The notes below the pieces were generated by a model that was not told the DNA's origin, made no database searches, and saw only the letters and a program-made list of their open reading frames with translations. A stretch of 64,000 nt of DNA, taken from Candidatus Thorarchaeota archaeon (GTDB taxonomy: Archaea; Asgardarchaeota; Thorarchaeia; Thorarchaeales; Thorarchaeaceae). Within the stretch, counting starts at the first letter, position 1, and the number at the start of each line of letters is the position of its first letter. The stretch lies in NCBI GenBank assembly GCA_008080745.1, contig SHMX01000001.1, positions 159,359 to 223,358 on the forward strand, read 5' to 3'. Of the stretch, positions 39,848 through 55,660 are shown piece after piece. The position numbers were made by a program, and so were the translations under genes.

Positions 39848-39909
39848 AAGTAAATCGACAATTTACAAGGCTTTAAGTCACACTCTATGACATAGTGAGT
39901 TGGATAATA

Positions 39910-40656
39910 ATGACTCTGACTCTAAAACAAAAAGAGCGGTACTCGCGATTCCTTCGATTAAACGAGATACAAAAGGAGGATATGGAATCAATTGTACGCA
40001 CGACTGTTGGTGTTGTTGGGGCAGGAGGTCTGGGAAGTTCTTCCCTAAGACTACTCACTGCTATAGGTTTTGGAAGAATCATAATTGTTGATTCAGACGA
40101 AGTTGAATTATCTAATATTCAGAGACAGACACTCTATAATACAGAGGATGTGGGAAGACCCAAGGTAGAAGCCGCAGTAGAGAACCTGATGAAGCTAAAC
40201 CCAGAAGTGAAATTTGAACCGAAGAAAGTGAGGGTTAATGAGGATAATGTTGAGGATATACTTCGGGATACAGACATTATTATTGATGGACTCGATTCCT
40301 TCAAAACACGGAAAATAGTCAATAAATTCAGCTTGGAAAGCAAGAAACCCTACATTTTTGCGGGTGCTGTAGAATTTTATGCAAATACTACGACCTTTCA
40401 GCCCGATAGTACGGGTTGTTTCCATTGTATTATGGGGGATGCTAAAGATAATCCAGAAATGACATGTGCGTCTATTGGTATAACCCCGGAAATACTACCA
40501 ATGGTCACCAGCGTTCAGGTTCGAGAAGCGGTACTAATTGCAACAGATAGAAAACCCAACCTTGCCAATAGATTACTGTCTATTGATATTGGCACTCTTG
40601 TTTTTGAAATGTTTGATATAAAAAAGAATGAGGAATGCGAAGTCTGTGGAGTTTAA
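39910..40656 (+). CDS. ThiF/MoeB/UbaA-family E1-like adenylyltransferase
   Basis: ERYSRFLRL...VGVVGAGGLGSS nucleotide-binding motif, DSDEVELSNIQRQ, and C-terminal CFHC...CEVCG zinc pairs; start at the first ATG (ORF track uses GTG at 39895). Confidence 0.8.
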   Translation: MTLTLKQKERYSRFLRLNEIQKEDMESIVRTTVGVVGAGGLGSSSLRLLTAIGFGRIIIVDSDEVELSNIQRQTLYNTEDVGRPKVEAAVENLMKLNPEVKFEPKKVRVNEDNVEDILRDTDIIIDGLDSFKTRKIVNKFSLESKKPYIFAGAVEFYANTTTFQPDSTGCFHCIMGDAKDNPEMTCASIGITPEILPMVTSVQVREAVLIATDRKPNLANRLLSIDIGTLVFEMFDIKKNEECEVCGV

Positions 40657-41798
40657 GCTCCAAAGAACAGTCTTCGCGCTCTTCTCTTCCTCTCCTCATC
40701 ACTCTGATCATCTGGTGGTGGTGGAGGTGGAGGTGGTGTGGTCTTGTCCGCTTCGTCTTTGGACTCGACTTCTTCATCTTCTTCCTCGTCCTCACTGCCT
40801 TCTTCGGATTCATCCTCAGAATCGTCAGGAATAGATGGTTCATCATAGGGACTCCATACTCGCTTAGGATCAGTAGGAACTTCATCTTCAGAATCGGATG
40901 TTTTGGATTCGACTGATTCCTCTGAATCTGGAGCTATAGTTTCTTCATAGTCACTCCAAGTAAATTCAGGTCCCTCGGAAGGTTTTGAGGGGGATTCTGG
41001 TGAAGCGCTCTGTTCGAAGTCATCAGTTGGAGGTATACTTCGCTCTGGCATAGAAGTCCTTTCAAAACTGGATTCTGGAGTAATTTCCGTATCGGTTTCG
41101 GTTTCTTCGGATTTTTCAGGTATCGGTGGTAGTTCTGATTCAGAACGAAGAGATTCTACACCTAATGGACTGGGTTCAATCAGTTCAAAGTCATCTTCAA
41201 AATGTCGTGATGAGGAACTGAAGGAGTAATCATCTGATTCTTGCTTGTCGGATTTACCTAGAGATTCGACAGATAATGGTTCAATATCCTCACTCTCAGA
41301 TTCGATAGGAACTTCTGATTCAATAGGTTCAGTTGACTCAGTAGGAATTTCAAATTCGTCGGTTTCAGGAGATTCAGCTCTTTCAACTTTTTCACGAGTT
41401 ATAGACTCAGAATAACTAGTGGTATCAGATGAAGTTTCGTAAGAACCTCTCTCTGGTTCGTAAGCAGAACTTTCCGGGATTTCCGATCCACTTTCTGTGT
41501 GTTGATAATCCTCGGTTACTTCATCTCTTGCTGTTTCGGTCTTTTTGAATTCGACTCCCAATTTCCAGCTAAGACACTCTTCACATTTCTTTGCAGCCGC
41601 TATTAGTCCGTCCGCTATGAAATCTTCAAGCGATTTGGCTTGTTCAGGATTGCGTCGCGACCATCTCAGAAAGCTATCTACCATACGTAAAGCGTCACGA
41701 ACGCCTAACCAATACTTCTCGTCCTTCTCCGAGCTCAATGGTGACACCTGAAGATGGAGATATGTAATTATGACAAAAGCCTTTGCATTACATACCAA
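40653..41798 (-). CDS. hyper-acidic Ser/Glu/Pro-rich low-complexity protein with C-terminal Pro8 tract and basic tail
   Basis: about 100-aa structured N-terminus, then about 250 aa of SE(P)-rich repeats, ending ...TTPPPPPPPPDDQSDEERKRRARRLFFGA; the start may be an internal Met (MVDSFLRWS). Confidence 0.5.
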   Translation of the reverse strand: MVCNAKAFVIITYLHLQVSPLSSEKDEKYWLGVRDALRMVDSFLRWSRRNPEQAKSLEDFIADGLIAAAKKCEECLSWKLGVEFKKTETARDEVTEDYQHTESGSEIPESSAYEPERGSYETSSDTTSYSESITREKVERAESPETDEFEIPTESTEPIESEVPIESESEDIEPLSVESLGKSDKQESDDYSFSSSSRHFEDDFELIEPSPLGVESLRSESELPPIPEKSEETETDTEITPESSFERTSMPERSIPPTDDFEQSASPESPSKPSEGPEFTWSDYEETIAPDSEESVESKTSDSEDEVPTDPKRVWSPYDEPSIPDDSEDESEEGSEDEEEDEEVESKDEADKTTPPPPPPPPDDQSDEERKRRARRLFFGA

Positions 41799-41806
41799 AA
41801 TACATG

Positions 41807-42259
41807 CTACAACCCGCGTGTCGTAAGCAATTCTTCCACGAGACCTTCAAAAGCTGAGATAATCCTCTTCCGCTCATCATCATCAAGGGGTTCATCAAGA
41901 ATGAGCAACCTGCATGGAACACTTCCAATTTTTTCCTTGACTTTGTTTTTGTATTTCGCCTCAAGATCCGGGTCGGTCTTCTCTAATACAACCATAGCCC
42001 CATGAGCGCCAGTATAAGTCATAGTCAAGAGGATATCCAGAGCTGAATGTTTGGAAAACATAAAGACAGCTCTAACGTCTGCTCCGTGACTCTCCCGCTC
42101 AATAGATCCTATACTTATTCCATCAACAGATACTAGATCTTTATTGAAGATCCTCACAACTTCCTCTAATAGATCTTCATCGGGGCCAAGTAGGGTAATC
42201 TTAAACAGAAACCTTTGCCCTTTCCTTTCCGAGGCTGGTGACATCAATAATTTCTCCAT
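41807..42259 (-). CDS. hypothetical alpha/beta protein (weak resemblance to a P-loop-less Ras-like GTPase or a pseudo-receiver domain)
   Basis: 150 aa; FKITLLGPDED...ALDILLTMTYTGAHGAMVVLEKTD...VPCRLLILDEP strand-helix alternation; no GxxxxGK[ST] P-loop and no phospho-acceptor Asp. Confidence 0.35.
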   Translation of the reverse strand: MEKLLMSPASERKGQRFLFKITLLGPDEDLLEEVVRIFNKDLVSVDGISIGSIERESHGADVRAVFMFSKHSALDILLTMTYTGAHGAMVVLEKTDPDLEAKYKNKVKEKIGSVPCRLLILDEPLDDDERKRIISAFEGLVEELLTTRGL

Positions 42260-43595: not shown

Positions 43596-46500
43596 TTATT
43601 TCGTTGGACGAATTATTTGGGGACCAACTATATCATGGAAGAGCTCTAGATAGGAAGAATCACTAGATAGCAAACTAAAGGGCTCATCAGAGTCTGTACC
43701 TAAGAGTATAATTTTATTGTCAGCAACCGCCATTAATGGAACATCTTGGGAATAGATAATCCTCCAACCCGGCAGTTCTTCAATACTGGGTTCACCATCT
43801 TCGGGTAAGGGAATGATCAATATCTTTCTTCGAGGTTTGGAAATCTTGGAAATCTTCTTTAGGTCTAAATCACCAGGATTTGGACTTGCAATCACTATTG
43901 ATTCTTCAGCTTGATTAGCCAGAGCTAGTATCTGTGAATAAATTGCCTCTTTTCCTTTGATATACCAAGTCTTACCAGATTGTGATAGAATTTCTCGACT
44001 GGCTTTTTGGATAACCTCAAGACTCTCAATCGATTTCTCTGTTACTGATTTCACACTCTCGAATGATGAATCTAAATTCTTCTGAAAATCAGTGTATTGT
44101 TTCTCCAGCTTGGTCACCCACCTTCTGATTGATTTATCCATCTCGGTGCTCATAGCTGTCAATACTTCGGACCTAGTTTGTTTCAGTTCTGAAGTTGTTT
44201 CTGTCATGACTGTGTTAGTCGTGGCTGTCGTTTCATTAATCTCAATATTCTTTGTAGCCACGTCAGCACGGATAGATTCCATTAATTCATAGGATTTTGT
44301 ACTCACATCAGTTTTTAATTCAACACCAAGGGACTCAAATTTCCTCGAAGCTTGCTGATTGGCAACAAGAACATTTTGACGAGTTTTATCAAGTATGTCA
44401 TCACAATTGGATCGCAGTTTCTTAGCAGTTCTCTCAAGGAGAGTAGTTATTTCATCATGGGCTGATTCCAACGAGAGGGAATAATCATGAAGTGAAGTAT
44501 TCAGTTCCGAGTTAGCTTCGGAATGAACCGCAGCTACTCCCTTCTTTATCGATTTTGTAGCTTCTTCAACACCAACTTTTGCACTCTCTGGCATAGCATC
44601 AATGGACTCCTTAACTCGCTCTAGAGCTGTTGCAACCATTGATTCAAAGTCCGTAGCTTGTGAACGAAGCTTCGATTCAGTTTTATCAAATAGACCAATA
44701 CTCATAGCTTCTAGTTTTTCAATAGTTTCATCACCCTTCGATAGTATATTCTCGGTTGCCTGTTCAGAAGTTTTGGAAAGTTGTTGTTGGACCAAGGTAA
44801 GCTCATTATCCAATTTACTTCCGAGAGCGGTAAGCGATGACTCTACATTAGAAACTGCAGATTCAACCCAGACAGAGGCAGCGTCGAAGGCTAAAGCAAC
44901 TTCGTTCTTTCTGGTTTCTAAAGTCTTCATGATATCCTCCTTAGACTTGCTTCTTGCTTTCACAGCTTTTGATTCCGCTTCCGTGATTGAACTTTGATAG
45001 TTTTCAAGACGTTCAGAGGATACCCTCGCTCTTGCACTGTATAGTGCATCCAGTTTCTTACTAGTTTCAGCTAGTGTTCTCTGTTTGGCATCACTTTGAG
45101 ATGAAAGGAATGACTCTGCCTTTGTTTTGATAGCACCAGTTGATTTGGTAATGAAAGTCTTGGCATCATCACGTGCACCCCCAATCCTTTCAACCACAGT
45201 ATCCCTACCACTACTGATTGAAGCATTGAACTCTCGAGATACCTGAGTAAGATTTTCTCCAAGCTGCCGAATTGTGCCACTGCTCATCTCTCTTAATGAC
45301 TCAGCAGTTGTGATCATTGATTGTTCAAGATTATCTATAGCGGTGTTAACCATTGAGGTAATTGAAGTACGCTTCTCAGAGCTCACCGTCTGAAGTGTTT
45401 CTCGAATCTCCTCCGCATGTTCAGCTACTTCATCAACTCGACTCTGTAATTGTATTGTGTACTCCTCTTGTATTTTGAGTGAATCGGATTCTAGGGAGGA
45501 AATCTCTGTTCTAATAGCATTCTTAAATTCGGTATGAGCTGAACCAATAAGATCAGTTGCTTCCAAGGTCTGACTAGAAATTAAGGCATTGAAAGACGAC
45601 TCTGTGCTCTGGGTTAGAGTGATGAATTGACGAGTTATCTCTTCAAGTTTGACATGGAATTCCTCCTGGATCCCTTTCGCCATTCGCTCTATTCGTCCCG
45701 TCTGATCTTCAATGGTGGAATCAATTTCTTTTTGAATCCGAGTAGCATGGCTAGTTAAGGTTGACACACTCTGAGCGAGTCTTTCATTCAGAGTTGTCCC
45801 AAGTTCTTGGTAGAGTGTCTTCGTGACATCTACCTGTGTCTTTGTAGTAGTTGCAAAATCGTTTATGATATCTGTAAATGTACTCTCAAGAGAGGACTCA
45901 AACTCTGTAGACATAAGTTTTGCATCAGAAAGAATTGCTTCACTTTGACTTGCTGATTTAGATATAATGCTGTCAAATGCAGTCTTTAGTCGACTATTCA
46001 TATTAGTAACAAGAGAATTAAATTCTGACGATTCTGTATCAAGAACTTGAGAGATTTCATCTACAGCACCAGTTAGTTTCTTCTCAATTTCTTCTCCGGC
46101 AATTGAAGCCCAATCATCAATATCAGCATTGAGTGTTTCACCATCTTCCTGTATTCTAGCATCATCAGCTTCAAGTTGGCCTTGTAGTAGGGAGAGTATG
46201 GAATTCCGCACCTCGCTGACATGAACATCGAAATCTGAATTAATCGATTTTGCAAAAGATTTCAAGCGGGCAAATTCATCACTCAGAAATCCACTCGCCT
46301 TGTCAAAATAGGTATTCACCGAGGTTCGAATAACTTCATGATAAGAATCGTCAGTGTCAGACACCTGTTCAAGTTGAGCGGTGACAGACTGATTTGCAAC
46401 CTCCATAAATCCTGTCACTTCTTTCTTCCAAGCTGAAATGTCACTTAGGACTGAAATAGTAGCGTCAATTGCAGTCTGAATTTCATGCTGAACGTGTTCT

Positions 46501-47489
46501 GCTTGTTCACGAGGAATCTCTTTAGCACTTTCAAGCATGCCATCAAGAGACTCCTTCGCACCGAGGTAGGATTCACCTAGAGTACTATCAAACTCACTAA
46601 GACTGGTTTTCAAATCTGAGATGAGTTGGTTTAGCTGTTTTACGCTTTTCTTTGAGATATCTGTCGATTTTGCAAGTACTACCTTTACAATTTCTTTTGA
46701 TGCATCATCAAGAGCTCCCTCTGATTCTGATAGTGCTTCGTTTATTGATGACCTAATTTGCTCTACTAATTCAGCTATCTTGTTGCTTACACCATCTATC
46801 GAATCTGAAACGGAGGTGGTCTCATCATTAAGCCAATCATCGAATTCGGTGGCAATCTCATCGGTGGATTCGATTAATTGTTTTTGGCTGGCATCTAATG
46901 ACTTCTGCAATTCTGACAATAAAACTCCTAGGCGATTGTCCAATCCAGTATCGATTTCTGTAAGTACAGTTTCTAGCTGTTCAACCAAAGAATTGAGAAC
47001 ATTAGTTACAGTTCCAGATATCTCTTCAATCTGGTCACGAACAGTAGTAACCATCTCGTTTTCATATTCGTCTAAAGCATTGGTTACTTTGAGATCTCGT
47101 TCTTTATGAGACTCGAGTAAATTCTGGGCAAGTGAGCTTGTTGTTTTTTCTTGCTCACCAATGACATTTTCAGAAACCTCTTTGATTGAGGAAAATTCGT
47201 CAAGCATCTCTTGGAGAGATGATACCACCATCGTATCAAGGGGTACAGCCCGATAAACCGGAATTACACCCTCTAGCTCTACCACATAACCTTTCTCAAT
47301 CAATTTCTTCAGTGTTGATTTTACTTTTGAGGTCTTTTCACCAATTAATAGAGCTACTCCCTCAGCAGTAATATTACCACTCGCAAGTATGGGATAAAGC
47401 ACAGAAGCTTCAAGTTTGGTGAGACCAAGATTGGATTTCAATACAGGAACAGTTTCAGTCATCAAATTGCCACTCACTACTAATACCAC
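43596..47489 (-). CDS. giant (1297-aa) protein: N-terminal TrmB-like winged helix, about 1000-aa Ser/Thr/Glu-rich helical (coiled-coil-like) region, C-terminal globular domain
   Basis: N-terminus LTKLEASVLYPILASGNITAEGVALLIGEKTSKVKSTLKKLIEKGYV is helix-turn-helix-like; long helical low-complexity core; C-terminal about 130 aa (WYIKGKEAIYSQILALANQAEESIVIA...) is not low complexity. Confidence 0.6.
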   Translation of the reverse strand: MVLVVSGNLMTETVPVLKSNLGLTKLEASVLYPILASGNITAEGVALLIGEKTSKVKSTLKKLIEKGYVVELEGVIPVYRAVPLDTMVVSSLQEMLDEFSSIKEVSENVIGEQEKTTSSLAQNLLESHKERDLKVTNALDEYENEMVTTVRDQIEEISGTVTNVLNSLVEQLETVLTEIDTGLDNRLGVLLSELQKSLDASQKQLIESTDEIATEFDDWLNDETTSVSDSIDGVSNKIAELVEQIRSSINEALSESEGALDDASKEIVKVVLAKSTDISKKSVKQLNQLISDLKTSLSEFDSTLGESYLGAKESLDGMLESAKEIPREQAEHVQHEIQTAIDATISVLSDISAWKKEVTGFMEVANQSVTAQLEQVSDTDDSYHEVIRTSVNTYFDKASGFLSDEFARLKSFAKSINSDFDVHVSEVRNSILSLLQGQLEADDARIQEDGETLNADIDDWASIAGEEIEKKLTGAVDEISQVLDTESSEFNSLVTNMNSRLKTAFDSIISKSASQSEAILSDAKLMSTEFESSLESTFTDIINDFATTTKTQVDVTKTLYQELGTTLNERLAQSVSTLTSHATRIQKEIDSTIEDQTGRIERMAKGIQEEFHVKLEEITRQFITLTQSTESSFNALISSQTLEATDLIGSAHTEFKNAIRTEISSLESDSLKIQEEYTIQLQSRVDEVAEHAEEIRETLQTVSSEKRTSITSMVNTAIDNLEQSMITTAESLREMSSGTIRQLGENLTQVSREFNASISSGRDTVVERIGGARDDAKTFITKSTGAIKTKAESFLSSQSDAKQRTLAETSKKLDALYSARARVSSERLENYQSSITEAESKAVKARSKSKEDIMKTLETRKNEVALAFDAASVWVESAVSNVESSLTALGSKLDNELTLVQQQLSKTSEQATENILSKGDETIEKLEAMSIGLFDKTESKLRSQATDFESMVATALERVKESIDAMPESAKVGVEEATKSIKKGVAAVHSEANSELNTSLHDYSLSLESAHDEITTLLERTAKKLRSNCDDILDKTRQNVLVANQQASRKFESLGVELKTDVSTKSYELMESIRADVATKNIEINETTATTNTVMTETTSELKQTRSEVLTAMSTEMDKSIRRWVTKLEKQYTDFQKNLDSSFESVKSVTEKSIESLEVIQKASREILSQSGKTWYIKGKEAIYSQILALANQAEESIVIASPNPGDLDLKKISKISKPRRKILIIPLPEDGEPSIEELPGWRIIYSQDVPLMAVADNKIILLGTDSDEPFSLLSSDSSYLELFHDIVGPQIIRPTK

Positions 47490-47534: not shown

Positions 47535-48374
47535 TTATTCGGACCCAGAAACCATCGTGAATAAACGGTTGAGTTCTCCCACCTTTATTCTGGCTCCTTT
47601 CGAGTCGGTTACTAGCTCCACCTCAAGTTGAAACTCTCCATCATCAAGTATATGAATTTCTTCAAATTGATTCTCAAATTTGCTAGCAATTTCTTTGAGT
47701 TTCTTGGGAGGTAGTTTATCCGAACCTAGTTTAAGTATCCACCAATTGGTTGTCAGATCATTGAGAGCGTATTTCACATTATAATGCTCAGAAAAGACTT
47801 CTACATAGATCTTAAACATATTAAGTGTACTGATAATAAGATTCCGAGGATTAACAACAACTACCCCTCTTGAAAGGTCAAAATGAAATAGTAGGTCATC
47901 CCCCACTACTACTTTGACGTTAAAAACTCTTAGAACAGACATTTTCGTCCAGATTTTTTTAAATCGAGTAAGAAAATGCTTGATGGAACTCACACGGAGT
48001 GTGGAGAGAAGGTCCTTGATGGGAACACGCCGGTCATATAACGAGCGTCCTTTTCGCTCAAGAATGTACCGTTTAACCTGGTCCAAATACTGAGAATAAC
48101 AGAAGCTTGGAAGGTCTTGCGGTTCTACGCCAATCTCTATTAGTGCATTTAGAAAATTACGATTTTTGCATGATGGGCGTACTGTGCAGGCTAGTCTGTC
48201 TTCTTGGCATTCGGAACATTTTGTCTCATAGAGTTCAATAATCTCGCTTGCAAGACTGCCATCAGCGATATCATCCAATATCTCCAATCTGATAGCAAGA
48301 TCGTCCTTGTGCTTCTTTAGTTCCAAATGCGATTCCAGCTCCGTTGTATCATAACTTCGAGGAGAGGGGGCCAA
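47535..48374 (-). CDS. hypothetical protein with N-terminal Cys cluster
   Basis: 279 aa; CSECQEDRLACTVRPSC near the N-terminus; co-directional with and 45 nt upstream of the giant gene. Confidence 0.45.
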   Translation of the reverse strand: MAPSPRSYDTTELESHLELKKHKDDLAIRLEILDDIADGSLASEIIELYETKCSECQEDRLACTVRPSCKNRNFLNALIEIGVEPQDLPSFCYSQYLDQVKRYILERKGRSLYDRRVPIKDLLSTLRVSSIKHFLTRFKKIWTKMSVLRVFNVKVVVGDDLLFHFDLSRGVVVVNPRNLIISTLNMFKIYVEVFSEHYNVKYALNDLTTNWWILKLGSDKLPPKKLKEIASKFENQFEEIHILDDGEFQLEVELVTDSKGARIKVGELNRLFTMVSGSE

Positions 48375-48483
48375 GTAGCATATGGACTGCTTGGTCCGAA
48401 GTCTCTATGAAAACTAAAACGACGAGTTATTTTATACTTATCTTAAGGATACACAAATACATGGCTTGTAAGAGTGTTTCGGA

Positions 48484-49593
48484 TTAGCCACTATGCGCTT
48501 CTTTCAATTTCGGAATCCAAGATCGAAACTCTTTATTCAAACGAGCAATATCGTTCTCATTTAGAGTCGCTGTAGCAGGATAGGACTTTAGCTCACGTGC
48601 AACTTTACCAAACTGAAATAGAACGGGAGAATGTACCTTGATCATCTCCGTGAGGGTGTCACGAGCTTTTTCGAGTGCCTCTGCCATTTTTACAGCCTCT
48701 GTCTGAGGTTTAACCATATCCAATAGAGATTGCATAATTTCGTCCATTGTTCCCTCAGGTTCATAATCCACAGAAGGTTCTTCTTCTCCAGAATCTTCAG
48801 CTTTCTTCTGTTTTTTTGATTTCGTTTCTTTTTCTTCAGGTGCATAACCGGTATCTACGAATTTGCCAATAACAGCAAGAGCCTCATTAACCTCTTTGAG
48901 GGTCTTGTTATACTTTCGTTCAATATCATCAAGCTGACGAACGATTATTCCTACAATCTCCTTGGTTTCCCCAAAACTGTCAGACAAATCACTAATTCGT
49001 TCTTCAAGAGTGGAAAGACTTGCCACATAGGACTGGAGTTCATCAATTTTCTTGGAGATGACCTCTGTTTGAGACCCGGAAGTGTCACCTACCTCTTTTA
49101 CACTGGTACACAGACCAGCTACCGAATTGATGATGTCATCCATCTTTTTGCGAATTTCCTTCTCACCCTCATCAGAAGAGGCCTCTTTAAGTCGCTCATC
49201 AACATCTTTCATTGAGATAAGAACATCATCTATTTTCTTGATAATGACTTCACCCTCTTTCGCATCAGTCATAGTCTTAATTCCAGTATCTATGCTCATT
49301 ATAGTGTTGGCAATATCTTCCATCTTTTGTCCCAAAGTTTGAATATCCTTAGATTCCTGAACCTTTTTGAGACCTGTATCTACATTTCTAACAGATGAAA
49401 GTAATTCATCAATTTTTGTTACTGGACTTATCTCCTTTTTCACAGCGTCCAAGTCAGAATCGATAGCATCAACTTTCTTAGCCAAGCTTGGAATAATGCT
49501 TACCGCCTTCAGCACCTCTCTAATAGCTGCAAGCTCCTCTGATATTCTATCTACTTTCTTTTCCAATTTCCCGATTGATGCTTCGTCCGACAT
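48484..49593 (-). CDS. coiled-coil repeat protein
   Basis: 369 aa; recurring about 20-residue units (LAKKVDAIDSDLDAVKKEI, IKKIDDVLISMKDVDERLKE, RKKMDDIINSVAGL, SKKIDELQSYVASL). Confidence 0.5.
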   Translation of the reverse strand: MSDEASIGKLEKKVDRISEELAAIREVLKAVSIIPSLAKKVDAIDSDLDAVKKEISPVTKIDELLSSVRNVDTGLKKVQESKDIQTLGQKMEDIANTIMSIDTGIKTMTDAKEGEVIIKKIDDVLISMKDVDERLKEASSDEGEKEIRKKMDDIINSVAGLCTSVKEVGDTSGSQTEVISKKIDELQSYVASLSTLEERISDLSDSFGETKEIVGIIVRQLDDIERKYNKTLKEVNEALAVIGKFVDTGYAPEEKETKSKKQKKAEDSGEEEPSVDYEPEGTMDEIMQSLLDMVKPQTEAVKMAEALEKARDTLTEMIKVHSPVLFQFGKVARELKSYPATATLNENDIARLNKEFRSWIPKLKEAHSG

Positions 49594-49695
49594 AGAGATC
49601 CCTACTCCAAGACTATGAAATCATCTTGTCTTATTACAATATTTAGGCTTTTGGTAAAAATCATCCGCGTATTAAAATTCTGATGATAGTATTAT

Positions 49696-50529
49696 TTAAT
49701 CTGATTTCAGTTCCTTTGCACGTATTATTTCAATCCCTAAAGATTCAATCATTGGAATGATACGATCACGTTGGTCAGAAGTGGTACCTTTCCAGTCAAG
49801 TATTGCTTGATTTACAGATTCGTGGGTTCTATTAACCATCTGAGATACCAAATCTTGGTTGATTTCATCAAGTACGTATTTTGGAGCCATATGGCTTATG
49901 TGAATATTTTCTTCTAGGACAAGACGATTGAATTTCGAGGCATAATGATTTCCCCCAAATGCAATAGATGCCCCTTTATTCATGGATACAGTGAGACAGT
50001 CGATAGCAGCAGCCGCTACTGCTTTAGCACCTTCAGGATGCTCCCAATATTCTTCATCAGAGCCAAGTTCAACAAATAACAGAGGTGTTTTCATACTGGT
50101 TGGACCATGATGAGTAACCTCAAGTGAAACATCAAATTCCGAAAGGTTACGATGATTTCGTTCTGAAAATAACCGTTTGTAAGCGGTTGAAACCAATGAT
50201 GCTGTAGATATTGAGAGCTCGTAGGGCTGTCCACCGAATGAGTCATCGGAGAGATAATTGCCAGTGCTATGCACCAGTAGAGCTGGTTTTGCTGATTTTG
50301 ACCTATGACGTGAGCAAAATATGAACACTTCTGCATCAAAATGCTCATCCAAATGGTCACACCGAATCAAATCACGTTCACTAGTGATAAGAATGGAATC
50401 TGGTTCGTGTGTATAGATTTCATTCCCTTCAAAAATTTCGCCATTTGAATGGAAACCATATTCATCGATTAGGACTTGCTTGATATTTTGACTAGCTGGA
50501 TCTTTTACTGAGGTTACTATTACCCTCAA
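49696..50529 (-). CDS. dtdA: D-aminoacyl-tRNA deacylase, archaeal type (DtdA/DTD2-like)
   Basis: 277 aa; FIFCSRHRS, VTHHGP, FVELGSDEEYW and FGGNHYA segments match the pattern I recall for the DTD2 family; recalled from memory, not searched. Confidence 0.55.
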   Translation of the reverse strand: MRVIVTSVKDPASQNIKQVLIDEYGFHSNGEIFEGNEIYTHEPDSILITSERDLIRCDHLDEHFDAEVFIFCSRHRSKSAKPALLVHSTGNYLSDDSFGGQPYELSISTASLVSTAYKRLFSERNHRNLSEFDVSLEVTHHGPTSMKTPLLFVELGSDEEYWEHPEGAKAVAAAAIDCLTVSMNKGASIAFGGNHYASKFNRLVLEENIHISHMAPKYVLDEINQDLVSQMVNRTHESVNQAILDWKGTTSDQRDRIIPMIESLGIEIIRAKELKSD

Positions 50530-51851
50530 ACTGCCTCACCTGATACAGGCTCGATACTACATTTCTGAAGAAGCGGTTCGAGGGTCTCACCATATTCAAT
50601 TGAAACCTTAGCACTAAAGGATTTTAGAAGTTCTTTCTCAATCCGAGATTTGTAATCTTTCATCTTTTCTAATTCACGTTCGATATCATCTTTCACGCGT
50701 AGCAAATCATTCTGATGATACTCTAGGTTCTTTCGAGCCTCCTCCACTTCAACCTTCAGTTTTGCATCTTTAGAGTAAACATCGGAGTCGGCAAATTCTT
50801 TTCGTTTGCGTTCTATTTCCTTTGCTTGTTCCTGAAGTTCAAAGAGTTCACCCTTCTTGATAGATTCAGCTTCTTCAATAGCACGCCTACCTAATCTGTC
50901 TTTCAGTGGAAATGCATCGGTCTCAACAGCTTGCTTCAATGCTTCAAGTCCTTCGATGAGACCTGGTTGTCCATCTGGCTCTTCTATTATTGCTTGGTAA
51001 GGATCTTCAAAATAGTCTAGTAATGCCTTTGATCCTGCTGGACTAACTCTAACCCCGTGATCGTGCTGAAGGAACTTTTTAACTGGTTTCTTAAGGGTGT
51101 TTAATTTCATTCGTAATAAGGTAGCAATACGATCGGCTTCGTCATCAAGATTTAGCAGGTCTCCAACATTGGACTTTTCAACAAAATCACTGTATTTCTT
51201 TTTAGCAGCCATATACTCTCCACGAGCATGGTCAATCTTCAAACGAACTTGTCTAATTTGCTCCTCGAATACGTCTCGACTGTATGTCATGTCGCGCAGA
51301 GTGTTAATCCTGGCATCTATTCGTTCCAAATCCTTAACCCAACTGTATTCGTATAGAAGTTTGCCAAGTATTTTCATATCGCGTGATAGGTCTTTCATTA
51401 GATTGTCCAATACTTTAATGGTGCTCTTGTGTTTCTTATCCATACGTTTAATCCATCGAGCACCTGCACCCCAAAGATCATTGATGAATTGTTGAATCTC
51501 CGCTTGCATATCCTCAGTACTTTCATAAGTAATATCTTGGTCAACCTCAAAACCATCCACTAACTCACGTAATTTCAGACCAAATCTAGTTGCAGTGCCT
51601 TCGCTATCCTCCTCGGTAGCCTCCTTCAGCAAATCTTTGGATAATTCTTCAATATCTTTCAGAGTTCGACCTACAGATTTGTAGCTCTTTTCTGCATTTT
51701 TTCGAAAGTCCTTAGACTTTTTCTTTAACTGTTTCCTATACCATTTAGACAAGGAGTCGATATCAAGTTGCGTCATAAGAAATGAACACCCATCAAACGG
51801 AAATTCTTCAAGCACTTTATCAACTTTACGAAGCATGTAGAATTGTTCCAT
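50526..51851 (-). CDS. coiled-coil protein, unknown function
   Basis: 441 aa, highly charged helical sequence; 4-nt overlap with dtdA. Confidence 0.5.
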   Translation of the reverse strand: MEQFYMLRKVDKVLEEFPFDGCSFLMTQLDIDSLSKWYRKQLKKKSKDFRKNAEKSYKSVGRTLKDIEELSKDLLKEATEEDSEGTATRFGLKLRELVDGFEVDQDITYESTEDMQAEIQQFINDLWGAGARWIKRMDKKHKSTIKVLDNLMKDLSRDMKILGKLLYEYSWVKDLERIDARINTLRDMTYSRDVFEEQIRQVRLKIDHARGEYMAAKKKYSDFVEKSNVGDLLNLDDEADRIATLLRMKLNTLKKPVKKFLQHDHGVRVSPAGSKALLDYFEDPYQAIIEEPDGQPGLIEGLEALKQAVETDAFPLKDRLGRRAIEEAESIKKGELFELQEQAKEIERKRKEFADSDVYSKDAKLKVEVEEARKNLEYHQNDLLRVKDDIERELEKMKDYKSRIEKELLKSFSAKVSIEYGETLEPLLQKCSIEPVSGEAV

Positions 51852-52113
51852 TAGTCGATATCCGTAGTCTTATATCAATCACAGAGTACTCGTACACAAC
51901 AAACAAACAGTGATTATCATGTCTGAGCTCTTAGATACGGGAAACCAATATCCAAGGCTCGATATAGAATATGCTGTCGAATGTGCCTCATGAGGAAAAG
52001 GTCGCAAAGGCTTCTATTTCAAACGCCTAAGTCTGATAGACGAGTCCAATGAGAATTGTCTACTACTTAGAAATCCTGCGGACTACAAAGCAGGTTTCTG
52101 GGTATCATACATA

Positions 52114-52719
52114 ATGAATGGTGAAATCCAAGTGTGTGGTTCAACTGATAGTGAAAGATTGAATCTCATCAGTCAAGAATATGATAAAGAACGGTATCAC
52201 TTCACATTGGAGAATACCCCGCTGTTTAAGGAATCACCAGTTCTGAAATTTGACATTGATGTGTGGAGTTACAACGAACCCTTCATGCTTATTCGTCATG
52301 TTACACGAAATGTTGGCGAAGAACAAATAGAGGATTTGAAAATCTACAACATCATGGACTTTGACATTGGAGGCCCCATAAGTTACAAAGATGATATGGG
52401 ACTCTATAATACCGATACAGGGGTCATTATGGTATACGATCTAAGCTCACTTACCGTAGCAATGACTGGTATACCACAACCAAATGGTTGGGACTTGGAC
52501 AAACCCACTAGTTTCAAACTAGAAGCAGACCGCGACCTTAGAGGAACCACAAAATTAGGACCACAAGATATTGCTACGGGATTGCAATGGGATCTCGGAA
52601 ATCTTGATCCTTGCGACTCGAAAAAATTAGAAATTGTTCTTGTTGCAGCCAAATGCCCTAATGAGGTAAATTCGCTCATAGAACGAGCCAAGAATATGTT
52701 CGATAAGAAGATGCAATGA
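52114..52719 (+). CDS. hypothetical protein
   Basis: 201-aa ORF, likely beta-rich; no motif recognised. Confidence 0.4.
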   Translation: MNGEIQVCGSTDSERLNLISQEYDKERYHFTLENTPLFKESPVLKFDIDVWSYNEPFMLIRHVTRNVGEEQIEDLKIYNIMDFDIGGPISYKDDMGLYNTDTGVIMVYDLSSLTVAMTGIPQPNGWDLDKPTSFKLEADRDLRGTTKLGPQDIATGLQWDLGNLDPCDSKKLEIVLVAAKCPNEVNSLIERAKNMFDKKMQ

Positions 52720-52878
52720 TGTAGCTGTGTAAAGCTAAGCAGCAGCTAAGGAGCAACGGGAAGCCCCCAATATCTTCTTCCGAACATCTTCCCATATGGA
52801 TAAATATCATTCCGAAATTGTATGAATTCTTCTATTTATTGGATAATAAAAAAAGGCTTGAAGGGACCTCAGCCCCTT

Positions 52879-53133
52879 CTATTCTTTCTGTTCTTCCAAA
52901 TACGACACCAATAGCATTGCTGGCGGGGTCAATTTGGAGGGCTCACCCTTGTTTTCAGAGTTTCCACCGGTGACAAGACCAAGATTCATCAAGGCACGAA
53001 GATTCCATTTTGCAGTAGAATAAGGAACCTTTGTTTTACAAGATAGAATATCTGCTAACCCGGTGATTGTTAGAACACGTGTTCTAAGAATTTCAGCACT
53101 AGCTACTAAGATGGTCTTTTGAGTGTCAGACAT
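52879..53133 (-). CDS. small winged-helix transcriptional regulator (ArsR/MarR-like)
   Basis: ITGLADILSCKTKVPYSTAKWNLRALMNLGLV helix-turn-helix pattern; start placed at internal MSDTQK because the upstream 48 codons of the ORF look non-coding. Confidence 0.4.
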   Translation of the reverse strand: MSDTQKTILVASAEILRTRVLTITGLADILSCKTKVPYSTAKWNLRALMNLGLVTGGNSENKGEPSKLTPPAMLLVSYLEEQKE

Positions 53134-53404
53134 TTTTTCTATTGCCAGACGGAAAAAAGCCTCAGCTAGACAATCAAAGGATATTTGAGATTCAGAACAA
53201 GTATTATTCGAGTAGACCTTCTGGCTACTGGAGAACACACTCACCTGGTAAGCGGATTTCGCACTCACCTGATGCATTCGTGACCCGATATCGATGGGCT
53301 TCTGAGTTGGTTTCGGTACCCATTGCGTTTTTCACCTCATTTTTCATTTGGGTCTAATCATGAAATAGGAAAGTGGACACTTAAGCATTACTAGTAATGC
53401 AGGT

Positions 53405-53899
53405 TTAGAGCATCTCTTCAGGTATCTCAAGTCCTAGAGTCCCCAACTTTGCAAATCCTTGTGAAAAGAGACTCATTTGATGACGTATCTCTTCCTCAGT
53501 ATCAATGATTCCCCGGAGATAATGTATTGCCTCCTCCAGACCCTCTGTCTTGTATTCTTCCATCATACGACCAAATTGATCGCTCATACCAAGCATGCTA
53601 TCCTGAATTAGCTGAGTAAGATCAATCATTGAGCGAACTGTGTTTCTGGCCTCATCTCCTGGCATGTATGGGAGGAAATCCTCTAAGGCTACTGCAGCGC
53701 CCTGGCACATATCTACTCGACCGGGGATAAGTTCGTCTTGCATCTTATGCATCCAGCCAAGAATTTCTCTGCTGGTTAGAGAACGAAGATTTTCCAAGTT
53801 GAAATATCCAGTCCAAGGACCGAATTCCTCAGCTTCATAGGATATCCAATCCTCGAAAGCGGTCAATACCCGTGCCCATCCTTCTGCGGTTTCAGACAT
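53405..53899 (-). CDS. hypothetical protein (helical)
   Basis: 164-aa ORF, no motif recognised. Confidence 0.4.
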   Translation of the reverse strand: MSETAEGWARVLTAFEDWISYEAEEFGPWTGYFNLENLRSLTSREILGWMHKMQDELIPGRVDMCQGAAVALEDFLPYMPGDEARNTVRSMIDLTQLIQDSMLGMSDQFGRMMEEYKTEGLEEAIHYLRGIIDTEEEIRHQMSLFSQGFAKLGTLGLEIPEEML

Positions 53900-53968
53900 A
53901 TATATCCCATTTTTGTGTCTGCATCCGAGGATATAAAGTAAAGCCCCAATAAAAATGAGTGATGAATT

Positions 53969-54631
53969 ATGAGTAAAAAGGAGTGGTTACTAGAGATATT
54001 GGAGAAAACAAAAAACGATACACAATTTGACGATCCACCAAAGTATATCATAGAGATATGCAATGAAATTGGTCTAAGAGGGTTAACGGATAATAGTATC
54101 GAATTATCACGGGAGCAGCGCATGGATGTAGCTAGATACACAGTGGCACAAGGAGTGCAAATAGAAACTGTAGTTGAAGGACTTACCTGGAAAGATTTTG
54201 AGGGGTTTATTGCATCCATCCTAGTAGAGAACACATACAAGTGTACGGAGAGCCTTCGCAGGATAGGTAATGAAACAGCAAAAGGAATGGAGATTGATGT
54301 TGTAGGAGTTAAGGGACGAACCATTCTGTCAATCGATGCAAAGATGTGGGGAATGAGAACAGGGAAGGCATCCGCTTTGAGAAAAGCTGCTGAAAAGCAA
54401 TTAGAAAGATCGTGTGAATTAGCCTCACAGTTATCTCTTATTCACAACCGAATACAAACACTACCTAGGGGACAATACACCATATTTCCCGTACTCACAA
54501 CATGGCTTGTGGAAGATATAATGATTCATCAAGGAGTTCCTATTGTCCCAATATTTCAAATCAACTCTTTCATATTGAACTTTGAAAATTATCAACATCT
54601 GATTCAATCATTTCAAGGAGAATTAAAATAA
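53969..54631 (+). CDS. PD-(D/E)xK nuclease-fold protein (Mrr-like restriction endonuclease catalytic domain)
   Basis: LTWKDFEGFIASIL...GMEIDVVGVKGRTILSIDAKMW follows the FE...(D/E)xD...K pattern of Mrr/Hjc-type nucleases. Confidence 0.45.
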   Translation: MSKKEWLLEILEKTKNDTQFDDPPKYIIEICNEIGLRGLTDNSIELSREQRMDVARYTVAQGVQIETVVEGLTWKDFEGFIASILVENTYKCTESLRRIGNETAKGMEIDVVGVKGRTILSIDAKMWGMRTGKASALRKAAEKQLERSCELASQLSLIHNRIQTLPRGQYTIFPVLTTWLVEDIMIHQGVPIVPIFQINSFILNFENYQHLIQSFQGELK

Positions 54632-54664
54632 AATTGAGGAGGAATTCCTCCTCATACTGTAGAA

Positions 54665-55660
54665 TTAATCAAAATCTTTAATCTCACCAGTTACGGTATC
54701 AATCATTCCTAGCCGGATGACCTCGATCTTGCTCTCATCGTAAGCAGGATATGTAGAGAGATTTTTCTTAATTGCTTCTGCTAATGAAAGAAGTCTCTTT
54801 TCAGGTGATTCAGGAGGTTCATCTTCAAAGCTCGATGCCTCTTGATTCAGAGTTTCAATAACTGGACGTAAATAGGTTCCATGAACATCTGACGGATTCA
54901 GAGATGCCTTGCCAGCACCACAGTGTTGTCCTTCTTCCTCAATCTTACCGTGTGGAATGAAAACAATATATTTCTTTGAACCTCCTGTCGCTTGCCAAGT
55001 TTCTAAGAATGCATTAAATTGGGCAGTTTCATCATCATCACCAGTATAGGCGGGAACATGACCACCTAAGGTTTGGATTGCATATGGTAATCCAGCATAT
55101 GTTAGCGGTGGGTGGACTCTTGAATCAGAACACACCAATATCATTACATCATCATTGACTGTAGTAGGTATTGTTGTTGCTCGTGATATAAGATGTTGTT
55201 CCACGGCCTGATTTCTATGGTATGAATGAGAGTGTGGAGAAACCTCTCCACTATTGTAGTTTATCTTGAGAGCTACAATAGGAATACCCTTAGTATCAGG
55301 ATTCTCAGAGACATTCTTCAATGATGCTTCAATTACGGCATCATCTTCGTCGTGTTCAAAGGTTATCACGATTCCATTCTTCTCGGGAAAGTGCTCATTA
55401 TATGCAGCCGGACCACTGAAAAAGATAGGCGTCTTATCACTCTCAGGTATTGATCGACCAGGCACTCGTGTACCTGAAAAAGCGTCACCCTGTTTGAGAT
55501 CAAAGAGCTGAAGGTCCTGGGCACCTCTCTTAATCGATGAGATTAGAAGAAAGCGTGGCTGTTGACCATTTGCTGCAATGTTCATTTTTTCTCGCAAAAT
55601 TGGATTGTTTTTACGTTCAACCCTAGTTGCTTTTGATATCTCGATAAGTTCGTTTATCAT
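54665..55660 (-). CDS. internally duplicated protein with beta-carbonic-anhydrase-like CSDSR motif in the second repeat (tentative)
   Basis: 331 aa; second half has ILVCSDSRVHP and IVFIPHGK...QHCG; first half has the degenerate equivalents LLISSIKRG and IVITFEHDED; spacing of the His/Cys pair deviates from canonical HxxCG. Confidence 0.3.
   Translation of the reverse strand: MINELIEISKATRVERKNNPILREKMNIAANGQQPRFLLISSIKRGAQDLQLFDLKQGDAFSGTRVPGRSIPESDKTPIFFSGPAAYNEHFPEKNGIVITFEHDEDDAVIEASLKNVSENPDTKGIPIVALKINYNSGEVSPHSHSYHRNQAVEQHLISRATTIPTTVNDDVMILVCSDSRVHPPLTYAGLPYAIQTLGGHVPAYTGDDDETAQFNAFLETWQATGGSKKYIVFIPHGKIEEEGQHCGAGKASLNPSDVHGTYLRPVIETLNQEASSFEDEPPESPEKRLLSLAEAIKKNLSTYPAYDESKIEVIRLGMIDTVTGEIKDFD

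Follow-up and report, generated by a model that had tools for sequence, protein, structure and literature searches.

A conserved gene pair of Thorarchaeota encodes a Rab-like fold without GTP-binding motifs and a hyper-acidic polyproline protein

What does an Asgard archaeon do with a hyper-acidic protein that ends in eight consecutive prolines and a basic tail? The question is raised by a locus of Candidatus Thorarchaeota archaeon (GenBank assembly GCA_008080745.1, contig SHMX01000001.1, positions 159,359 to 223,358), in which such a protein is encoded by a gene, here called A, that lies directly downstream of a second gene, B; the whole stretch of 64,000 nucleotides (nt) that was analyzed is called the window. 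To our knowledge, the profilins, actins, and Rab-like GTPases of Asgard archaea are characterized in vitro, and their native partners are essentially unknown. A preliminary description of the window had proposed that A might be a proline-ligand module of the eukaryote-like kind or a histone-chaperone-like acidic protein, and that B might resemble a Ras-like GTPase or a receiver domain. We found that A and B form a conserved gene pair, in which B has a Rab-type fold that has lost its nucleotide-binding motifs and A combines a helical hairpin with a disordered chain and a strongly conserved C-terminal module, and the two products may act together as an interaction platform and its adaptor.

The proline tract of A and the tail DDQSDEERKRRARRLFFGA that follows it were read directly in the window, just as first described (Table 1). 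Among the open reading frames (ORFs) of the window with at least 100 amino acids (aa), A is the only one with any run of four or more prolines, and about 1e-7 runs of eight (P8) would be expected from the proline frequency. The same C-terminal module recurs in homologs with the consensus PPxPPPPP, about 8 acidic residues, R(R/K)(R/K)RARRLFFG, and one variable residue; the acidic spacer has 7 residues in the clade of the window and about 8 otherwise. We surveyed 58 complete A C-termini from species-level genomes: 32 had P8 and 6 had P7, the rest were mostly PP[A/S/L]PPPPP, and the length of the segment was constant. A P4 to P8 run inside this 8-residue segment was present in nearly all 58 orthologs, one of which had PPSPPAP. 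Among five genomes in which the encoded peptide is identical, the codons used for Pro, Arg, Leu, Phe, and Gly in the module differed freely, and because synonymous codons turn over while the peptide remains unchanged, the module is under purifying selection at the protein level and is not a product of slippage. Apart from two trivial short arrays, TRF reported only the CCN tract, as a weak signal of period 3, and therefore the disordered region of A is not a DNA-level repeat expansion. Both the proline tract and the acidic region are kept in homologs; compositional drift, which the preliminary description had named beforehand as a refuting outcome, was not borne out.

More than 227 homologs of A were recovered in a single search; all those with a named source are labeled Thorarchaeota or generic Asgard, and a Pfam domain was found in none. 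A scan of GTDB species representatives gave 69 A loci; one is labeled Hermodarchaeota, and nearly all carry the label Thorarchaeota, Promethearchaeota, or uncultured archaeon. A appears to be restricted to the Thorarchaeota lineage, because distant relatives of B in two loci (L006 and L007) have no A-like neighbor. Five conserved elements stand out in the alignments, and the acidic stretches between them vary in length and content. The N-terminal one spans about 56 residues and contains an invariant CxxC (YWxGVRDALRMVDSFxKW...AKxLxxFIxDGLIAAAKRCExCL), and the AlphaFold2 (AF2) model of A (46-sequence alignment, 364-aa numbering) shows it as a hairpin with helices at residues 5-32 and 40-63 and a pLDDT of 91-97. 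The chain is otherwise mostly disordered, with short helices and local confidence peaks at linear motifs 1 and 2 and a C-terminal helix at residues 350-362 over EERKRRARRLFF (pLDDT 75-84). The P8 flanks are disordered in the model, so that the tract is accessible and exceeds the 5-6 consecutive prolines that a profilin-binding ligand should at least offer in disordered sequence.

Several further observations concern these elements. The invariant CxxC (CEEC, residues 52-55, 41574..41585 on the minus strand) is located on the second helix of the hairpin, and with two cysteines per chain, a dimer is suggested in which the chains would share a putative metal site (Zn or Fe-S). Orthologs range from about 260 to 654 aa (L061:2974-4935; also L036, L038, L050, and L069), and solely the acidic disordered region expands; in the L061 ortholog, the tail variant ...RKRRMRRLYLRF replaces RRLFFGx. 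PIP-box, HbYX, and MIM-type C-terminal motifs were considered for the tail and rejected, since their spacing or key residues misfit RRLFFGx.

The start of A is probably TTG 41738, which gives 361 aa, because homologs begin with MSS(D/E)xK.(D/E)(K/E)YW, and this sequence aligns there in the window. An SD-like AGGTG is found at 41745..41749, 6 nt before this codon. The maximal ORF, 40653..41798 on the minus strand, is present in the window, and its product ends in ...TTPPPPPPPPDDQSDEERKRRARRLFFGA; the length of 381 aa that had been given to A comes from running this ORF out to its first possible start. The gap of 8 nt reported between the two genes arose from the same over-extension: it becomes 68 nt when counted from TTG 41738, and spacers of 39-77 nt separate the genes in other genomes (L001, L002, L004, and L005). 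From TTG 41738 the product contains 20.2% E, 15.8% S, 9.7% P, and 9.4% D (D+E 29%; pI 4.08), a count that confirms the Ser/Glu/Pro-rich, hyper-acidic composition described for it. The net charge of the 364-aa version is -70, and across the family D+E ranges from 23 to 37% and net charge from -40 to -97. No family match was obtained for A in Pfam (E<=0.1) or NCBIfam, and Foldseek returned zero matches of its model to the PDB; a PDB sequence-profile match to huntingtin was dismissed as meaningless, as it reflected polyQ/polyP low complexity only. A is an orphan family with a likeness to eukaryotic linear-motif scaffolds and, in architecture only, to ribosomal stalk proteins, and such a disordered architecture rich in linear motifs is unusual for a prokaryotic protein.

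The product of the B ORF is 100% identical to BAJATHORv1_10187 of Candidatus Thorarchaeota archaeon. Its start is most likely ATG 42244, which gives 145 aa, because the 100% identical database entry (P0001) and the homologs start there. A first search found 3 homologs of B, and 264 were found with a profile built from the syntenic upstream genes; an exhaustive profile search of 1.8 billion representatives indicated a small family of about a dozen 50%-identity clusters. The AF2 model of B (pLDDT 80.6) has the alpha/beta fold of a G domain with one beta-alpha unit fewer than Ras, and its top 50 Foldseek matches were Rab9, Rab23, Rab1b, Ypt32, Rab8, and similar proteins. When the B profile was compared with PDB chains, Rab23 was matched with an E-value of 0.0075; an hhalign comparison with a single H-Ras sequence gave a 17-column match that was uninformative and was set aside. 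The structural comparison with small GTPases that had been named beforehand as a check thus returned a Rab-type fold and not an unrelated one, whereas the receiver-domain alternative was not upheld, as B has neither the (beta-alpha)5 flavodoxin-like fold of CheY nor the phospho-acceptor Asp with which strand 3 of such a domain ends.

The nucleotide-binding motifs of this fold were counted in 185 members of the B family. Walker A, GxxxxGK[ST], occurred in 0 of the 185, in agreement with the early suggestion of a Ras-like fold without a P-loop, and in the loop that replaces it, G20 and P21 are invariant. In the hidden Markov model (HMM) alignment to Rab23, 'm.spkhsald' stands against 'WDTAGQEEFD', so that MSPKH is opposite DTAGQ, and v(d/g)sxxD is opposite NKxD (NKID); H66, A68, L72, and L73 are invariant. 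The G3 motif DxxG(Q) and the G4 motif [NT]KxD were not recognized in B, with regular-expression counts of 14/185 and 4/185 taken without checking the register. Among curated models (Pfam Ras/Roc/Arf at E<=0.1; NCBIfam), B had no match, and only a distant relative, P0257, matched Pfam Ras. B is best called a Rab-like pseudoGTPase, since it has the fold and lacks the motifs of a functional Ras-superfamily GTPase. With G1, G3, and G4 lost family-wide, nucleotide cycling is not expected, and B most likely neither binds nor hydrolyzes GTP. Conservation within B is highest in the loop that follows strand 1, in the equivalents of switch I/interswitch (VDGIRIGS) and of switch II (SPKHSALDILL), and in helix 3. 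These are the surfaces by which Rabs contact effectors. The core of B is acidic, with a median net charge of -11.

Loss of G1, G3, and G4, one beta-alpha unit fewer, and no Pfam Ras/Roc match set B apart from Rab/Ras-family GTPases such as human Rab23, Rab9, and Rab1b and Thor-Rab (PDB 7EZB). A parallel is offered by eukaryotic pseudoGTPases of the CENP-M type, in which a small G fold without nucleotide-binding motifs serves as a constitutive interaction module. Published Thor-Rab work concerns genuine GTPases without prenylation sites (PMC10933270), and among the papers searched, none was found on an Asgard pseudoGTPase or on the A or B family; B appears to be an undescribed, and the first archaeal, pseudoGTPase family. 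More than half of the B homologs among the matches listed end in a C-terminal tail of 20-50 residues with about 45% Lys (KKKAPKKK-type; e.g., P0003, P0137, P0149, and P0166), and this tail is missing from the B of the window. Such a tail is charge-complementary to the hyper-acidic A and might interact with membranes or nucleic acids. Distant relatives without a P-loop were also noted (P0251, P0253, P0254, and P0255). More distant Rab-like proteins of this kind lie outside the A-B pair (L007:3297-3740, L007:4001-4447, and L006:4001-4621) and show 'GP(D/N/H)D' where Walker A would be, and two of their genes stand in tandem beside the genes for ribosomal protein L15e and an RNase P subunit, which points to a putative wider family of G-fold proteins without nucleotide motifs. 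P0257 (174 aa; Pfam Ras, E 1.4e-23) keeps DTAGK, has a degenerate P-loop 'GSPDELKT' and no NKxD, and may represent a step in the evolution of the B family from Asgard Rabs.

The pairing of the two genes is highly regular. In the window and in L001-L005, B immediately precedes A in the same orientation, and it does so in 65 of the 66 GTDB species-level loci with enough upstream sequence, the exception being a contig of 0.6x coverage, and adjacent locus tags in about ten NCBI metagenome-assembled genomes (MAGs) agree with this arrangement. The genes on either side lie on the opposite strand (FeS_assembly_P divergent, ThiF convergent), and the B-A pair is therefore its own two-gene unit.

Table 1. 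Features of the B-A locus (window coordinates; residues numbered from the proposed starts).
Feature	Coordinates	Strand	Remarks
Gene B, 145-aa Rab-like pseudoGTPase	41807..42244	-	maximal 150-aa ORF 41807..42259, up to ATG 42259
'GPDE', B residues 20-23, strand 1-helix 1 loop (Walker A site)	42176..42187	-	GP[DENH][DEN] at this site in 182/185
'FSKHSALD', B residues 63-70, switch II equivalent in place of DTAGQE	42035..42058	-	consensus SPKHSALD; Rab23 alignment
B-A spacer, 68 nt	41739..41806	-	contains SD-like AGGTG; homolog N-termini
Gene A, 361-aa hyper-acidic protein, putative adaptor	40653..41738	-	range includes stop codon; maximal ORF up to TTG 41798; one Logan gene call at GTG 41747
N-terminal helical hairpin, A residues 9-64	41547..41714	-	AF2 helices and invariant columns
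Linear motif 1, A residues 175-192	41163..41216	-	window SSSRHFEDDFELIEPSPL; consensus GPPRDFxxDFxLVEPxPL; pLDDT peak ~71, short helix
Linear motif 2, A residues 259-270	40929..40964	-	window FTWSDYEETIAP; consensus PSFTWxDYExAVTP; AF2 short helix, pLDDT ~73
Linear motif 3, A residues 294-303	40830..40859	-	VWSPYDEPSI; consensus (V)WSPYDEPS; conservation map
Eight-proline tract, A residues 335-342	40713..40736	-	codons CCA CCT CCA CCT CCA CCA CCA CCA
C-terminal tail DDQSDEERKRRARRLFFGA	40656..40712	-	acidic spacer, then Arg-rich helix with LFFG-x end; ER..RARRLFFG (nearly) invariant; AF2 helix

On the basis of these findings, we propose, with moderate confidence, that B and A form a constitutive pseudoGTPase platform/adaptor pair, in which A serves as a multivalent linear-motif scaffold. 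B would be Rab-derived, having kept the G fold while its P-loop, DxxGQ, and NKxD were replaced by acidic and other residues, and would act as a permanently 'set' interaction platform instead of a switch. The hairpin of A would be a rigid anchor on the conserved switch-equivalent surface of B, in the way that helical Rab effectors sit on Rabs, and/or would dimerize via CxxC. A parallel exists in the Rab effectors that bind through helical hairpins or coiled coils, such as Rabenosyn-5 and Rabaptin-5, whose complexes are among the fold matches (1z0k and 1tu3): the only folded element of A is a two-helix hairpin of about 60 aa, and A is encoded beside a Rab-fold protein. However, A has no detectable homology to these effectors, and its presumed partner B cannot signal a GTP state. 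The polyanionic disordered tether of about 270 residues would be a multivalent recruiter displaying the three aromatic/acidic linear motifs, and the end of A would be a composite docking module consisting of an 8-residue polyproline II (PPII) rod, 7-8 acidic residues, and the Arg-rich LFFG helix. The helix might contact an anionic membrane or another anionic surface, the acidified groove of B, or a third protein. We infer that A binds B, that the pair acts as a hub recruiting other proteins, and which ligands each part has.

For the P8 tract, Thorarchaeota profilin would be the most concrete candidate partner. A run of 5-8 prolines is kept family-wide, as in profilin ligands such as Ena/VASP (GP5), formin FH1, and the proline-rich regions of WASP/WAVE, and the (A/S/L)PPPPP variants tolerated in A resemble known profilin-binding motifs; unlike those ligands, A has one tract and not an array. 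It is plausible that P8 binds profilin, and the P8-tail peptide ...KQTPPPPPPPPETDDSEEERKRRARRLFFGT is a plausible candidate ligand of the Thorarchaeota profilin. A profilin of this lineage (TFG12995.1, from the MAG TEKIR_14) was demonstrated to bind a VASP polyproline peptide weakly, with a Kd of 200-500 uM (PMC8410842; preprint 10.1101/2021.08.06.455371). The peptide in that study was human; as native examples, its authors named two individual proteins whose motifs are short and of the PPxxPP type, not the A family (PMC8410842). TEKIR_14 itself carries the B-A module (L068), and its A protein (P0065, TFG14830.1) has P8.

Several points weigh against the platform/adaptor proposal. The links of A to B and to profilin are drawn from genes and sequence, and an affinity of 0.2-0.5 mM between profilin and polyproline is weak (PMC8410842). 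The fixed length of 8 residues and the fixed spacing to the tail could equally mark a rigid spacer of one composite motif unrelated to profilin, and the helical hairpin of A has no fold-level homology in the Foldseek comparison with the PDB. In addition, the wider neighborhood is syntenic across Thorarchaeota (giant TrmB-like, GNAT, Zn-ribbon, and FeS_assembly_P genes, then B-A, then DUF362, aminotransferase, and CxxCxxCC genes), and B-A adjacency is therefore weaker evidence of functional coupling than it would be amid rearranged genes; A may also have its own promoter inside the spacer.

Of the competing explanations, a tether to membranes or other polyanionic surfaces survives best, although we regard it as unlikely. 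The Arg-rich LFFG end of A and the Lys-rich tails of B would bind anionic lipids in place of the prenyl or polybasic anchors, which are missing from Asgard Rab-like proteins, and the acidic region would act as a repulsive brush or spacer. The last 13 residues of A (ERKRRARRLFFGA) have a net charge of +5, a terminal L-F-F cluster, and predicted helicity, and the tail is similar to KGFLKRLFGG, with which MinD of E. coli ends; like the membrane-targeting helices of MinD and FtsA, it would be a short basic and hydrophobic C-terminal helix ending in ...RLF(F)G. Unlike them, it has a low hydrophobic moment (0.24 versus 0.55 for the MinD peptide), a value reached by 61% of shuffles of the same residues, and is thus not a classical amphipathic membrane-targeting helix; for this reason, a MinD-like helix was downgraded from candidate to rival. 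The Lys-rich tails on more than half of the B homologs among the matches listed would provide a second basic anchor, but the B of the window has none, and the adjoining chain of A, with its net charge of -40 to -97, opposes an anionic membrane. Prenylation cysteines are missing from Thor Rabs, and how these proteins attach to membranes has no explanation so far (PMC10933270), a gap that a tether of this kind would fill; the invariant P8 is left unexplained by it.

Less likely again is an arrangement similar to that of the ribosomal stalk, in which the LFFG helix would dock into a groove of B, perhaps the former nucleotide site, with P8 and the acidic spacer setting the geometry and profilin uninvolved. 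Like the stalk proteins aP1/P1/P2, A has a helical N-terminal anchor, a hinge that is acidic and flexible, and at its C-terminus a conserved helix with the ending L-F-(F)-G, and the stalk's own helix recruits G-fold proteins, docking into translational GTPases (PMC4267659). In aP1, aEF1A is bound by L103, L106, and F107 together with the C-terminal G108, and conservation of the LF pair is strict (PMC4267659). The fixed spacing from P8 to the tail would suit such docking, as would the acidic core of B and the conserved Asp/Glu at its old P-loop, which complement the +5 tail. However, the parallel is one of analogy only: A has no sequence or Pfam relation to stalk proteins (no match to Ribosomal_60s) and shares with them no more than the general architecture and the terminal L-F-(F)-G, its hinge is about 5 times longer, and P8 and three internal motifs are added. 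The segment before LFFG is Arg-rich, whereas the stalk motif has several spaced leucines (PMC4267659).

We consider doubtful, and a shade below the stalk-like arrangement, the proposal that the locus encodes an Asgard-native actin-regulatory hub, in which A, seated on B, would capture profilin-actin via P8, and the Arg-rich LFFG helix, possibly with the Trp/Phe-acidic motifs, would pass actin on to filaments or membranes. No EVH1, EVH2, WH2(-C-A), FH2, or VCA domain was found in A by Pfam, nor any fold match, and its PDB sequence match was to polyQ/polyP only; A thus carries no domain of Ena/VASP, WASP/WAVE, or formins and does not qualify as one of those actin regulators. If the proposal were true, the pair would stand as a functional precursor or counterpart of Ena/VASP, WASP, or FH1-type factors, and a G fold and a polyproline scaffold would have been coupled before eukaryogenesis.

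Improbable, and lower still, is a polyanionic chaperone, sink, or mimic, to which the histone-chaperone-like assignment in the preliminary description belongs. Here, the acidic region with its aromatic anchors would bind basic or nucleic-acid-binding clients, including the Lys tail of B. The extreme acidity of A is conserved, B tails are complementary to it in charge, and FTWxDYE and VWSPYDEPS recall the acidic-aromatic 'anchor' motifs of eukaryotic H2A-H2B chaperones. Against this, A has no similarity to any chaperone family: no recognizable chaperone fold or domain (NAP, ASF1, nucleoplasmin, and others) was found for it in Pfam, NCBIfam, or the PDB, and its folded part is a helical hairpin, so that the assignment was not sustained. 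The disordered sequence between motifs is free in length and content, and the invariant P8, the Arg-rich LFFG, the hairpin, and the pseudoGTPase partner would remain unexplained. Non-functional low complexity, in which an ORF under little constraint would have drifted in composition and undergone replication slippage, would fit the composition and the period-3 array over the CCN tract, but has practically no chance of being correct and is already refuted by the conservation data, namely more than 227 members with motifs in register, a constant length of the proline tract, freely varying synonymous codons, and an invariant tail.

The surroundings of the pair have features of their own. A and the convergent ThiF/E1-like gene (39895..40656, plus strand) overlap by 4 nt at their 3' ends (40653..40656). 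A as a Ubl/Pup-like modifier of this E1 was rejected: ThiF is absent from the equivalent position in L004 and L005, the protein ends in FFG-x and not GG, and there is no beta-grasp fold. On the other side, 43596..47489 (minus strand) encodes a giant protein of 1297 aa, in which an N-terminal TrmB winged helix precedes apolipoprotein-like helical repeats that occupy about 1000 residues, and an ortholog of 1297-1299 aa is found at the same position in four other Thorarchaeota genomes. Beyond it, 47535..55660 contains Pfam-less ORFs of 279, 441, 201, 132, 164, 220, and 331 aa, five of them also without an NCBIfam match, together with a 369-aa coiled-coil protein (sub-threshold coiled-coil-type Pfam matches only) and a D-aminoacyl-tRNA deacylase (49696..50529). 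An Rfam scan of 39-44 kb found nothing.

Thorarchaeota are placed among the closest archaeal relatives of eukaryotes, and the module described here, a pseudoGTPase with a disordered adaptor, combines components of known kinds in an unexpected lineage; its function is what we infer. B suggests that in Asgard archaea, too, nucleotide switching has been lost while the G fold was retained as a scaffold. In A, the locus provides a polyproline protein that is present lineage-wide, is under strong constraint, and is paired genetically with a protein of Rab fold; it is a candidate for the missing native ligand of Asgard profilins. As a member of the module sits in TEKIR_14, the very MAG whose profilin was studied, the question of a physiological polyproline ligand becomes directly testable.

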